Positions 23,646 through 32,938 of a DNA stretch of 35,520 nt are shown here, in pieces. The stretch comes from a virus. Taxonomy: Duplodnaviria; Heunggongvirae; Uroviricota; Caudoviricetes. The stretch lies in the IMG/VR virus record IMGVR_UViG_2724679293_000011; one strand, 5' to 3'. Every line of letters starts with the position of its first letter. Position 1 is the first letter of the stretch. Both the position numbers and the translations under genes were made by a program. The notes under the pieces are model-generated. The model saw nothing but the letters and a program-made list of their open reading frames with translations, was not told the DNA's origin and did no database searches.

Positions 23646-23916
23646 GATGTTACCGTAGTATGTGAGTATCCATCGAATAGATACCAAGCAAAAAAGCTCC
23701 CGAAGGAGCCTTCATTTTCACTTTTTTAAATCCAACGACAGACGGCTGGCATTTAAGTATTGTGAAATATTATCAAATGTAATCATCATTGATTTACAAA
23801 AGATACATTTTGCCCCGAAAGGATTCATGTCAGAAACATCAAAAGATGATGTTCTATACTGGGAACCATGACAACACGGGCATCTAAAGTGAATATGGTT
23901 TGTAATATTGTCTACC

Positions 23917-24129
23917 TCAAAGCGCCACTACATGAACAGCGGCAGGACCTTTAGGTCCGTTCTCAATACCAAATTCAACTTCCTGATTCTCAGTTAATGT
24001 TTTGAAATCGTTGCTCTGAATTGCTGAGAAATGGACAAACACATCTTTGCTGCCATCTTTCGGCGTGATGAAACCAAAACCTTTTTCAGGGTTAAACCAT
24101 TTCACTAAACCAGTCATTTTGTTAGACAT
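23917..24129 (-). CDS. cspI: Cold shock protein (CspA family), CspI-like
   Basis: 70 aa, [70 protein letters not shown], with RNP1/RNP2 cold-shock-domain motifs; a long AT-rich leader upstream (24130-24480) is typical of csp genes. Confidence 0.9.
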
Positions 24130-24490
24130 AATTATTACCTTTTGAAGAAATTAGCCCTTGGGCAGAATGGTCCGAAAAAAATATCAGAGAGAAAAACCAA
24201 CAAGGAAATCTCAAGAGGTACAAATAATAAAATTATAACAATGACTGCTTCAGATAAATTTGTAACAAACCAGAACACCATTAACGCATGATTAACCACC
24301 CATAGCAAGGATTACTTTTGTAAAGAAAAACACAGCAATGAAAGAATAGCTTTATTTATTAATAAAACGTGTCATTCTGATTAAGACCTTTTATCTTACC
24401 CTTAAGATTTCAGGAATTTTGGCTCATGGAAGAGTCCTTTTTATTTAAATTTTACATTCCGCGATGTAAATGTTCCGATTTAATATTACC

Positions 24491-26518: not shown

Positions 26519-26799
26519 GAGATTGTGGTGCTTTTTGTGGGAGTCATCCACTTACGCACTTTGTTTTGCGATGCCAGCAGTTAGCTTCTGCTGTGAAACT
26601 ATTCATGCAGCAAACCTGCACTTCACCACAATGGTTAGCATACTTTTCCTGATTAAGATTTTGCCAAATATGCTAGCCATTGTTTCATGTATTGGACCTC
26701 CTTACTTTTTATTAAAGAGATCCAATATTCACTACTCTGTCCGTATCTCTACTCAGGCATCAGCCTTCTTCGTTATCGTATACAGACGAGCGATGAATT

Positions 26800-27015
26800 T
26801 TAATCAGTAATGATGACATTTGCTGCTGCAGGACCTTTAGCACCTCTCTCTATAGAGAAGGTAACCTTTTGACCTTCAAATAAGGTTCGATAATTATCAT
26901 TCTGAATCGCAGAAAAATGCACAAACACATCTTTACTACCATCAACAGGAGAAATAAAGCCGAAACCTTTATCAGCGTTAAACCATTTTACTAAACCAGT
27001 CATTTTATTTGACAT
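26800..27015 (-). CDS. cspB: Cold shock protein CspB-like
   Basis: 71 aa, [71 protein letters not shown]. Confidence 0.9.
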
Positions 27016-27325
27016 TCTACATTCCTTAACTTGAGCCTTTCGGCATAAATGGTTTGCATAACAGAAACGACTTCGTACTTAATTGGAGAGACTCAAAGAA
27101 GGAATAAGTGAATAACACCTGAAATGAGAACTGCTTTAGTAAACTACTTCGTATATCGTCTGTTCTTCAAACCGACGCAGTCATTAACTCATAGTTGAAC
27201 ATATGAAGCAATGTTTATTTTAGACATCCAGCCACCTTCAATCCTATCAAAAAAGTAGTTTTCTCCAGGAACGTGTGTATGGTGCACCAGGTTATCAGTA
27301 TTAAGGAGTTTTTCTGTCCCCTAAA

Positions 27326-30320: not shown

Positions 30321-30476
30321 TTACTCCTCAGGTTCGTAAGCTGTGAAGACAGCGACCTCCGTCTGGCCGGTTCGGATTCGTACCTCGCAGAGGTCTTTCC
30401 TCGTTACCAGTGCCGTCACTATGACGGTTAAACAGATGACGATCAGGGCGATTAACATCGCCTTTTGCTGCTTCAT
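30321..30476 (-). CDS. hokD: Hok-family type I toxin (HokD/RelF-like)
   Basis: 51 aa, MKQQKAMLIALIVICLTVIVTALVTRKDLCEVRIRTGQTEVAVFTAYEPEE; an in-frame upstream extension to 30533 (MLDICRLASYVPKGKEKQA-) may be a mok-like leader. Confidence 0.85.
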   Translation of the reverse strand: MKQQKAMLIALIVICLTVIVTALVTRKDLCEVRIRTGQTEVAVFTAYEPEE

Positions 30477-30687
30477 AGCCTGCTTCTCCTTGCCTTTCGG
30501 CACGTAAGAGGCTAACCTACATATGTCTAGCATGAAATTGGCCTCAGATTAATGTTAAGCGTCTTGCAGGACGCGTAATGTTAACTGGGGCTTTTCTCTA
30601 TCTGCCGTTGGTGTTCATGCCCGAGGCAGATAGCCTCAAGCACCCGCAGCCATTCTACTTAACTACCGTTACCTCGCCAATGTGAAA

Positions 30688-30780
30688 TCAGTCAGAAAGG
30701 CGATCCATAAGAACAATAGCAAGACAATAAATCGCCATTACAGCCGTAATAGCCAGCGCACATTTGAGAACCAGCACCAC
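30688..30780 (-). CDS. Possible small hydrophobic peptide gene (29-30 aa, single predicted transmembrane helix)
   Basis: AGGAGG followed by GTG GTG ...; translation (M)VLVLKCALAITAVMAIYCLAIVLMDRLSD then TGA; about 150 nt upstream of hokD; below the ORF-track cut-off. Confidence 0.3.
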   Translation of the reverse strand: MVLVLKCALAITAVMAIYCLAIVLMDRLSD

Positions 30781-31150
30781 AACCTCCTGTATTGGACGTA
30801 GACCAGTCCTGATGAATATGAGGCTGTCTCGTCAGTGATTCAATACAACTATTGGGTATAGTTTCTCTGATTTTTTCTGTGGAAATGGGGCACAACCACT
30901 AGTCACCACCAGCACTTCTTTTAATACGCAAAGTCCGACACAAGCTAACCTTCTAGTCCGCTTTGAGCGAAAAACAGCCATAATTTAGTGCCACGTATAT
31001 AATGATAGAGCTATTCAAGCTAGCAATTCACATGTAAAAATTCAGAGGGTAGAAGCACATAGTTATAAATGTTGGCTCCATCGACAAATTGCGGTCTCAA
31101 GTACATTTATTAATGTTGCCCCCGCATTAACAAATCATCAAGGTGACGAC

Positions 31151-32938
31151 ATGGACGATATTAATATCAGCCTCGACGAACTTAACACTATTGATTTATC
31201 CCCCTTAATCCAGAGTAAGCTGCCAGTTACCTGCTTTGATATCACAAAGTATCTTTCTAGCCTAGGTGATGGAAGAGCGGAGATAAGACTGCTAACCCAT
31301 ATTTGCGGTTTTCACTTTCGTCCCGAAAATCCACAGGTACCATTTGGTCCGTGCTTTCAAAGCAGCCAAGGTAGATCTGCAATTCCGGATGACATTAACG
31401 GGTTGTCGCTGGAGGTACTTTCTCAATTTTGCCCGACGATAGAGCTACCCGAACTTCAAGCTCGTATTGCTGATACACTTTGGGTTCGTAAAATTGGTGG
31501 AATCCGTTTTCCTTTGCTGGCAGTCCGTGCTTATTATGCGTCCAGTATAGCTATTATGACATCGCAAGGGACGTGGGTTAGTGCTTTAGAACGCCTAGAG
31601 CGTGCGCTTAGGCTGTGTTGTTTTTTTCGAAAGCATACTGATTTCAGGGATGAATTTGATCAGCTTTCGGCACATCTACTAGCAGAGTATGAACGTACCA
31701 GAGAACAAGGCGATTCACCTTATCCGCTGCGACTCCTGCAACTCGATATCGACTGTAAAGTGAGTGAGCCATCTTTTATTGCCCAGGAACTCCTGTTTCT
31801 GACAAAAAACTATCTGGCTCAAAAATTATTTTCATTTGCCGTCGATGCCTGTAAAACCGCAATCCCGATTGCGAATAGGTGCTGTGACAGAGATACACAG
31901 TTTGAATTCTGGCGGCTTCTTGCCGATACACATCTGGAAGAGTCAAAATTCCAAGATGGCGGTATGATTTCGGCAGCCTGCATGCAGAATGCTATTGAAG
32001 CACTGGCTAATATTCCAGGAACCCGAATAGAACGTCTTGCGCTGTATGAAGAAATGCGTGATTACCAAATCGAATCCCGTCACCAGATGTCTATCCTTCA
32101 GTCTCCCCCTCAAGATATTAGTGAGATTGTCCATCAAGCCAAGAGTCGGGTAGTCGGAAGAGATTTGTTTGATATGGTTTTCAGACTTGCGATGCTGGTC
32201 TGTCGGCCAACCAGCATTGAGAGACTTAAGGCTCAAGCAATAGAACAAAAGGCCAACAGCATAGCTTGGATGTTTGGATCAACACATATTGATCATGAGG
32301 GAATGACACTTGCTCGCATACCCGCAGGATTGGGGATTGATGATGCAAATGGGGCAGTTATTTGGCCCATAATGATGACGAGAATGCGTATCGACCATGA
32401 GTTGGCAGTAGCTGGGCAAATTATTCCTGCTACAGATGAGATCACAATGAAATATCCAATCTCGGAGGCGTTTTTTCGCGATATGTTCATCAATCATCCC
32501 TTCATCCCGTTTGGGCATGAAGAGTTTTTCATCAAGGGTATGGTTTGCGGTTTCAATGGAGATTTTATGACGGCATGCCACGTGTTGATTCCCCAGATCG
32601 AAAATAGTCTGAGATATGTGGCTAAAATTAAAGGTGAGGAACCATCGCAGCTTCACGGGGACGGTTCGCAAGAGCGAAATGGACTCAAGGGATTACTAGA
32701 TAATCCACTGATTATTGAAGCTTTCGGCGTAGACATAATTGGCAATCTTCAGGCCTTACTGGTAGATAAAATCTATGGTGATTTACGAAATCAACTAGCT
32801 CACGGATATGTGCCTGCCGGTTACTACAATCAACCTCCCTGCATTTTTGCATGGTGGCTTGTATTGCACATTCTAATGAACCCTACGGCGAGATACTGGC
32901 AAGCCACTTATGGCCAAGAGAGTGAGGCTCAGACTTAA
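31151..32938 (+). CDS. Unknown 595-aa protein with C-terminal HEPN-like R-x4-H motif (LRNQLAHGY); candidate abortive-infection or defence effector
   Basis: Clean ATG ORF with an AAGGTGA ribosome-binding site on the strand opposite the surrounding prophage genes, and a long AT-rich leader; the motif R546-N-Q-L-A-H551 is encoded at 32786-32803; no Walker A/P-loop seen; family not recognised. Confidence 0.8.
   Translation: MDDINISLDELNTIDLSPLIQSKLPVTCFDITKYLSSLGDGRAEIRLLTHICGFHFRPENPQVPFGPCFQSSQGRSAIPDDINGLSLEVLSQFCPTIELPELQARIADTLWVRKIGGIRFPLLAVRAYYASSIAIMTSQGTWVSALERLERALRLCCFFRKHTDFRDEFDQLSAHLLAEYERTREQGDSPYPLRLLQLDIDCKVSEPSFIAQELLFLTKNYLAQKLFSFAVDACKTAIPIANRCCDRDTQFEFWRLLADTHLEESKFQDGGMISAACMQNAIEALANIPGTRIERLALYEEMRDYQIESRHQMSILQSPPQDISEIVHQAKSRVVGRDLFDMVFRLAMLVCRPTSIERLKAQAIEQKANSIAWMFGSTHIDHEGMTLARIPAGLGIDDANGAVIWPIMMTRMRIDHELAVAGQIIPATDEITMKYPISEAFFRDMFINHPFIPFGHEEFFIKGMVCGFNGDFMTACHVLIPQIENSLRYVAKIKGEEPSQLHGDGSQERNGLKGLLDNPLIIEAFGVDIIGNLQALLVDKIYGDLRNQLAHGYVPAGYYNQPPCIFAWWLVLHILMNPTARYWQATYGQESEAQT

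Follow-up and report, generated by a model that had tools for sequence, protein, structure and literature searches.

The hok/sok locus is a textbook type I toxin-antitoxin system. Hok/Gef and other toxins of this class, among them TisB, ZorO, Ibs, ShoB, Ldr and DinQ, are small membrane-inserted peptides with a single helix. Proteins of the same size also serve as regulators: AcrZ, MgrB, MgtS and CydX are small regulatory inner-membrane proteins of E. coli. Lambdoid phages carry morons, self-contained units of a promoter and a gene that are expressed from the prophage, such as bor and lom of lambda (Hendrix and colleagues).

The prophage locus hokW-sokW makes lysis faster and phage release higher after induction (PMC8621323). 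A short ORF of EHEC Sakai, XECs145, has been ribosome-profiled (Hücker et al. 2017, PMC5597208). In LB it has an RNA RPKM of 79.1, a RIBOseq RPKM of 346.1, a ribosome coverage value (RCV) of 4.35 and a coverage of 0.99; the corresponding values in BHI are 121.3, 150.1, 1.14 and 0.84 (PMC5597208, S2 Table). The authors' tables list XECs145 as 'real' and give its predicted location as 'inner membrane' (PMC5597208).

The locus analysed here lies in a Qin/Rac-like lambdoid prophage of E. coli, within a stretch of 35,520 nucleotides that we refer to as the window. Directly ahead of hokD it carries a 29-codon frame. On comparative evidence this frame is very probably a true gene, with a promoter of its own and a one-helix membrane peptide as its product. 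XECs145 (WP_001278450.1) belongs to the same family, as its type B. The two products are homologous over the transmembrane helix and the tail (EGALAVIAVVGVYCLVVFLMDRLGN against KCALAITAVMAIYCLAIVLMDRLSD), a relationship recovered by profile search, and the two genes share the AGGAGG Shine-Dalgarno (SD) sequence, their orientation and a place directly upstream of a prophage hok promoter. XECs145 differs in being five codons longer with an acidic N-terminus (MSDDISLAME), in its ATG start (GTG in some alleles), in its unlike upstream DNA, and in having the ORF set apart from the hok promoter by additional DNA and a 22-nt palindrome. With type I toxins the window's peptide shares its small size and single helix, which is predicted. 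Unlike them, it has no Pfam, NCBIfam or PADLOC match; its gene has no detected antisense RNA and no structured or long leader, and a homologue is translated efficiently. We know of no recognisable sequence similarity between the peptide and Hok/Gef, TisB, ZorO, Ibs, ShoB, Ldr or DinQ.

Results

The 1-kb stretch around the small gene is 100% identical to ATCC 25922 and to many other strains. The gene adjoins hokD, as a preliminary description made from the sequence had stated: the hokD CDS (PGAP) occupies 30321-30476 on the minus strand, within a mok reading frame that spans 30321-30533 on the same strand. The 5' part of the hok mRNA, comprising tac, the Sok target and the mok start, lies at 30471-30645 on the minus strand (Rfam RF01794, 112.7 bits, E 4e-25). 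It is preceded by the hok mRNA promoter TTGGCG-17-TAGAAT (30652-30680, minus strand), whose -35 element starts 8 nt past the stop codon of the small gene. That stop codon is 43 nt upstream of the hok mRNA 5' end, and the promoter/terminator scan found no terminator between it and the hok promoter. On the other side, a spacer of ~260 nt separates the promoter of the small gene from a divergent cargo gene encoding a DUF4209 protein (31151-32938, plus strand), which matches the PADLOC candidate defence family PDC-S39 (E 2e-102).

The slot between the DUF977 gene of the replication module and the small ORF with hok holds different cargo in different prophages. Elsewhere it carries SIR2, DUF5677, an AAA ATPase with HNH, QueH with a methyltransferase, HigBA or, in the Qin prophage of K-12, relBE (loci compared: L003, L005, L011, L140, L243 and L141). 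From these sequences, the slot looks like a defence or cargo hotspot. In K-12 the small gene is absent from Qin and relBE fills its place, so surveys of K-12 small proteins could not detect it. In two IMG/VR loci (L143 and L183), the small ORF has lost its 5' part to a QueH-like cargo gene, with the junction ~70 nt ahead of the hok mRNA start. A six-codon mini-frame, ATG GAT CAC CTT TCT GAT TGA, remains there; the GGAG in front of it comes from the end of the cargo gene, and the mini-frame is probably a chance remnant of the recombination. Elsewhere in the window, the prophage cold-shock genes (cspB and a cspI-like gene) account for two matches to the cspA-type thermoregulator 5'UTR (RF01766), with 161.6 bits at 26784-27176 and 114.2 bits at 23890-24274, both on the minus strand.

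The small-protein CDS (30688-30777, minus strand) encodes MLVLKCALAITAVMAIYCLAIVLMDRLSD. Read along the minus strand, the order is AGGAGG (30788-30783), GTG (30780-30778), GTG (30777-30775), 28 more codons and TGA (30690-30688). The preliminary description had the SD sequence and the paired GTG codons right and opened the frame at the first of them, giving 30 codons; the ORF listing of the window likewise has a 30-aa version at 30688-30780 on the minus strand. Only 2 nt separate the first GTG from the SD sequence, and other alleles have GTC, ATC or TAT in its place. The second lies at 5 nt, is present in all alleles of type A, to which the window belongs, and is ATG on the Shigella plasmid. 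Because the second GTG is conserved and the first is variable, the start is placed at 30777 and the product has 29 rather than 30 residues. An SD core of at least GGAG, GAGG or GGGG is preserved in every lineage.

AlphaFold2 models the peptide as one helix spanning residues 2-29 (pLDDT 92.9), and its core has a mean Kyte-Doolittle (KD) hydrophobicity of 2.58. Five ORFs of at least 20 aa in the window have a perfect AGGAGG at 4-9 nt, and the small gene is the sole strongly hydrophobic one among them. None of 200 shuffles of the window gave an ORF of 20-60 aa behind AGGAGG with a 19-residue KD mean of at least 2.4. The combination of a hydrophobic ORF with a perfect AGGAGG is beyond chance. Together with the comparative coding evidence given below, the structural model bears out the earlier claim of a gene for a hydrophobic single-helix peptide behind a strong SD sequence.

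A predicted sigma-70 promoter for the small gene lies at 30815-30843 on the minus strand: TTGAAT (30843-30838), a 17-nt spacer and CATATT (30820-30815), with a predicted transcription start near 30808 and a 5'UTR of ~30 nt. Its hexamers match the consensus at 8 of 12 positions, which is below the threshold of the simple scan, and hence it was not listed there. The arrangement TTGAnn-17-CATATT recurs in 123 of 142 loci. The spacing is 17 nt in every case, and the spacer sequences are of at least six unrelated kinds; spacers such as CACTGACGAGACAGCCT, TAACGAGCACGAAGACA, CAAGGAAGAGGTTGCCA, CAGTTGAGATACAAATA and CCGGGAAGGGGCGGCTA differ completely between lineages. The same arrangement occurs on pINV and in the L243 lineage. 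Since the hexamers and the 17-nt spacing are kept over unrelated spacers, the predicted promoter appears to be functional in type. The small gene would have a moderately weak sigma-70 promoter of its own.

Relatives were gathered from complete E. coli genomes, from two IMG/VR scans (one anchored inside the ORF, the other in the hok mRNA), from GTDB species genomes and by protein and profile searches. They comprise the main type A, which includes the window's allele and its close relatives; the L003 type, with 77.7% nucleotide identity over the region; L242, of 30 aa (MLAALKGFVAILAVVAIYCLVVVLMDRLSD); L243, of 31 aa from its GTG (MLVLVLKGALAIAAVAVIYCLVIVLMDRIFE); the Shigella/EIEC plasmid form (MLVLKGTLAIAAVMTIYCLIVVLMERFSD); and type B, of 34 aa (MSDDISLAMEGALAVIAVVGVYCLVVFLMDRLGN). 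The type A region was found in 1,715 of 5,426 complete E. coli genomes, and type B in 672 of the same set. Inducible phages with the gene include mEp460, Evi and Tritos. In the scans run, the family ranges over lambdoid prophages of Escherichia and Shigella and their remnants only. A back-translated scan of GTDB returned Escherichia/Shigella together with short MAG contigs labelled Collinsella, Candidatus Scatousia and Haemophilus.

The window's peptide follows the family pattern [KTE]-[CG]-x-[LV]-A-[IV]-x-A-V-x-x-[IV]-Y-C-L-x-x-x-[LF]-[MW]-[DE]-[RH]-[LIF]-x-[DNE], then stop. It also has the family's position, on the hok strand with its stop codon 8-60 nt upstream of the hok promoter and a GGAGG-type SD sequence. 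Three features are conserved: a Y-C-L core, a juxtamembrane tail [D/E]-R-[L/I/F], and a stripe made up of small residues with a single cysteine (A-x-x-A-x-x-A/G-x-x-C). A, A, V, Y, C, L and the D/E-R tail vary little or not at all.

Scans of the peptide and its relatives against Pfam, NCBIfam, PHROGs and PADLOC gave nothing significant, and a profile search of the PDB with the peptide gave no match. A profile search of 1.84 billion representatives returned 17 clusters only, all of them this peptide or over-extended calls of it; on that ground a fragment of a larger protein was rejected. No occurrence was found in a full-text literature search for substrings of the peptide, and no description of an upstream ORF in the literature on hokD, lambdoid phages and small membrane proteins or on hok/sok and prophages. 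The family is unnamed and uncharacterised, and hypothetical-protein accessions and one ribosome-profiling record already exist for it. That record concerns the type B homologue in an uninduced EHEC Sakai lysogen, and not the window's allele or type A; type B is about 52% identical across the 25 C-terminal residues, has unlike DNA upstream and is present in several genomic copies.

The ORF shares the strand of hok and immediately precedes the hok promoter in every deep lineage, and the ancestral position of the family appears to be the 5' edge of the hok/mok/sok module. The hok-anchored IMG/VR sample provided 93 loci that were new to the scan and usable. Among these, 23 carry a type A or B ORF, and 25 carry an unrelated or very distant transmembrane ORF of 27 aa, type C (MTWPEAFTTVGIAMAVALVVYSICRWG), in six cases together with A or B; 51 have neither A/B nor C. 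After addition of 22 loci shared with the ORF-anchored scan, a figure obtained by arithmetic from the locus numbering, types A and B are present in about 45 of 115 hok loci.

The small gene and hok can occur without each other. Deletion or replacement of hok has left the ORF intact in L006, L008, L138, L139 and L134. Conversely, hok survives unharmed in L009, L010, L011 and L143, where a deletion of ~97-109 nt or a cargo insertion has removed the promoter, SD sequence and first codons of the ORF. As many hok loci lack the gene, or have truncating deletions or cargo insertions in it, the small gene is dispensable. The clearest case of the ORF surviving the loss of hok is pINV, the virulence plasmid of Shigella and EIEC. 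With tblastn, 143 plasmid records gave a match, all from Shigella or E. coli; 135 fall into the 60-80% identity class. On the S. flexneri plasmid NZ_CP026794.1 (167707-167796; L244 2501-2590), a 29-aa homologue is intact and retains AGGAGG and TTGAGT-17-CATATT, with ATG as its start codon; its codons show seven synonymous and eight non-synonymous differences, and there are no gaps. The hok promoter and 5' region next to it have decayed with gaps to a remnant of ~70 nt, which is broken off about 290 nt before icsP, and no Rfam hok/sok match is left at the locus. The homologue sits there in the long regulatory region upstream of this virulence protease gene.

Further small transmembrane ORFs occur at hok loci. 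In O157:H7 TW14359, two stand in tandem ahead of hok (L240, 1423-1506 and 1541-1645): the first is an unannotated 27-aa type C ORF, MIWPEAFAITGVAIAIDFLVYVICRWG, behind GGAGG, and the second is the annotated 34-aa type B. In many other prophages type C stands ahead of hok by itself. The type B cassette (L240, 1500-1690) is flanked by a direct repeat, GGGTAAAAACG, and followed by a perfect 22-nt palindrome, CGATATGGGAATTCCCATATCG, which is retained even in an ORF-less locus (L149). Judged by sequence, repeat and palindrome may be an insertion/deletion footprint or a protein-binding site. In two IMG/VR loci (L153 and L176), a third kind of small hydrophobic ORF, of 32 aa (MEKVDVLILIFGYINALFLGVFMAVMCIEYWR), lies about 92 nt upstream of the hok mRNA start.

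The preliminary description saw in the peptide the architecture of type I toxins and small membrane regulators. As the toxin of a new type I pair, the small gene would encode a membrane-depolarising peptide kept untranslated by an antisense small RNA. Its form fits: at 29 aa it is below 60 aa, it has one transmembrane helix (core KD mean 2.58) and a short polar tail, and it adjoins a bona fide type I locus, hok/sok. The conserved GTG start and the sub-consensus promoter could moreover hold its expression low. The search for an antisense small RNA that the preliminary description had proposed was carried out computationally on the plus strand across the locus and found none: the scan of the opposite strand at 30640-30960 gave no promoter-like or terminator-like site, and the Rfam scan found hok/sok and no other RNA family. 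Between lineages, the DNA ahead of the gene becomes mosaic 40-80 nt from the start codon, and there is no conserved room for an sRNA gene. The leader is ~30 nt long; leader and ORF fold no better than shuffles (z = -0.51) and have no complementarity to the Sok region beyond that of shuffles.

The homologue is translated efficiently in growing EHEC Sakai cells in LB. A translationally silenced toxin is unlikely to give an RCV of 4.35, a value that comes from XECs145 and not from the window's allele, and this argues against silencing. On pINV and in hok-less loci the gene stands alone, with no conserved neighbour. Nor does the peptide belong to Hok/Gef (PF01848): it has no Pfam or NCBIfam match at E<=10 and, ending five residues past the helix, lacks the periplasmic C-terminal domain with Cys. 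Because no antisense RNA was found and the homologue is efficiently translated, we do not file the small gene as a type I toxin, and we regard that reading as unlikely. The other half of the early suggestion, a small membrane regulator, is a possible role.

Three RNA-level candidates at the locus were rejected. A plus-strand antisense promoter picked out by eye (TTAACT-18-TGAAAT, ~30661-30688) has a G at position 2 of its -10 element and is below the scan threshold. Action of Sok in trans on the small-gene mRNA was dismissed for want of complementarity to the Sok region. An RNA element is contradicted by the folding score (z = -0.51), and the sole hairpin call of the scan, weak and inside the ORF (30753-30734), is not kept in the divergent L003 allele, as judged by eye.

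The peptide frame could alternatively be a non-functional, accidental ORF, conserved only as DNA that travels with the hok promoter or serves it. Comparison of the frames across homologues, also proposed in the preliminary description, favours the peptide frame. There are no in-frame stops in 42 distinct alleles (166 loci), and minimum substitutions by codon position number 26/16/38 in these alleles (chi-square p=0.018). For this count the alleles were filtered by DNA identity and the anchor columns were excluded, in place of a partly circular protein-motif filter. Substitutions between the five deep lineages are distributed as 18/10/25. Summed over these lineages, pN/pS is 0.51 in the small-gene frame and 1.19 in the +2 frame, and the +1 frame has stops in all five. 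Pairwise Nei-Gojobori estimates alone were not discriminating, the stop-filled +1 frame having given similar ratios, and the argument is therefore built on the codon-position counts, the phase of the indels, the swaps of start codon and the hydrophobicity.

The indels between deep lineages are of +3 and +6 nt and stay in frame. The start codon alternates between GTG and ATG at one fixed position, and the SD sequence is kept. The core has a mean hydrophobicity of 2.6-3.1 in every lineage, far above the 1.40 +/- 0.54 expected from random substitution at the same density. In the 300-nt region the ORF is the best-conserved and the sole gap-free block, with a major-allele frequency of 0.957 compared with 0.78-0.91 in the flanks, and even the hok promoter is less conserved. 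Type B alleles have seven synonymous and three non-synonymous changes among themselves. Within type A, 19 synonymous and 21 non-synonymous events compare with expectations of 13.5 and 26.3 (chi-square, p about 0.07), so that the coding signal of type A alone is weak.

The type A counts and the pN/pS of only about 0.5 fit an accidental ORF, as do the youth and narrowness of the family and the last ~25 nt of the ORF, which stay joined to the hok promoter where the rest is missing (L011, L143, L180 and L183). Since selection is moderate and the evolutionary depth is small (one genus), hitch-hiking with hok is still conceivable. Against it stand the three-base periodicity, the in-frame indels, the start-codon swaps, the hydrophobicity and the conservation beyond that of the hok promoter, along with the gap-free survival of the ORF on pINV beside a decaying hok and the ribosome footprints on the homologue. 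We regard an accidental ORF as very unlikely.

The 67-aa Cys-rich ORF that overlaps the gene (30692-30895, minus strand) is an out-of-frame shadow, as had been suspected from the sequence. In this frame, the +2, pN/pS is 1.19, with no sign of purifying selection; L242 and type B, two of the deep lineages, interrupt it with stops; and its 5' half is unconserved, that part not being homologous between lineages. Deposited records that between them take in several hundred contigs list this shadow ORF as 'hypothetical protein'. In phage HannyBb (L002, 1454-1743, minus strand), two hypothetical CDSs lie over the small gene on the opposite strand. The small gene itself is unannotated in the identical RefSeq genome of ATCC 25922, where PGAP has nothing between hokD and the DUF4209 gene. 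The preliminary description had called it too short for the ORF track; taken as a statement on annotation, this agrees with ATCC 25922 and fails for the family, as other alleles hold RefSeq hypothetical-protein accessions: a 90%-identical 29-aa type A allele is entered as 'MULTISPECIES: hypothetical protein', and PGAP annotates type B in O157:H7 TW14359 as WP_001278450.1, hypothetical protein.

Least probable of the readings considered is a role in cis, in which the conserved promoter and translated leader would serve to drive transcription, or RNA polymerase coupled to ribosomes, across the hok promoter. Hok production would then be tuned by occlusion of that promoter or through a hok mRNA extended at its 5' end, and the peptide would be incidental. 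The 8 nt between the stop codon and the hok -35 element, free of a terminator, would allow this, each deep lineage stands directly upstream of a hok gene, and production of prophage HokW rises on induction by an unexplained route (PMC8621323); a pure cis function would not need the conserved amino-acid pattern (Y-C-L-type core, D/E-R tail, hydrophobicity), however, the gene is kept with its promoter and SD sequence where hok is gone, and type B has its palindrome and extra DNA between the ORF and hok.

Discussion

We consider it likely that the 29-codon frame is a real gene with its own promoter, encoding a single helix of the inner membrane, and that it is a prophage 'moron' expressed from the resting prophage. 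With the morons of lambdoid phages it shares a conserved predicted promoter of its own, a place at a mosaic junction of the early-right region, and presence or absence independent of its neighbours; its type B homologue is expressed in an uninduced lysogen. It differs from the classical morons in lacking a terminator of its own and in being far smaller.

Transcription from TTGAAT-17-CATATT would give an mRNA with a ~30-nt leader and a consensus SD sequence, from which the 29-aa peptide would be translated. As no terminator intervenes, the transcript should run on into hok. The peptide would insert into the inner membrane as a single alpha-helix and, to judge from its residue pattern, would pack helix-to-helix with a membrane partner, which may be the neighbouring Hok or a host membrane protein. 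The conservation of A, A, V, Y, C, L, the D/E-R tail and the small-residue stripe suggests specific packing between helices over a non-specific pore. AcrZ, MgrB, MgtS and CydX resemble the peptide in size class, in their single helix and in the conservation of specific residues within it, and this conservation suggests that the peptide too has a defined partner. They differ in having no homology to it, and the window's gene is prophage-borne and not part of the core genome.

The most attractive hypothesis is that the peptide may modulate hok-driven lysis and phage release. In its fullest form, which we put forward as doubtful, the peptide would be made constitutively and would pair with Hok as a helix within the membrane, governing when, or above what threshold, Hok damages the membrane in prophage induction or abortive infection. 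It would have been co-opted alone where hok was lost, as upstream of icsP. More broadly, tiny transmembrane ORFs, of at least three kinds, stand at the 5' edge of about half of prophage hok loci, and would then be a general and overlooked feature of chromosomal hok loci.

What is new here is a conserved membrane-peptide gene, separately promoted by prediction, at the 5' edge of many prophage hok loci, previously undescribed and unnamed. For annotation the lesson is that the gene was missed in ATCC 25922 and that GenBank pipelines often call the wrong, overlapping 67-aa frame. Of most interest are the tiny transmembrane ORFs that accompany prophage hok loci and the copy next to icsP in Shigella. 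If the peptide modulates Hok or a host membrane protein, the dissection of hok loci would change, as deletions and clones usually begin at the hok promoter.
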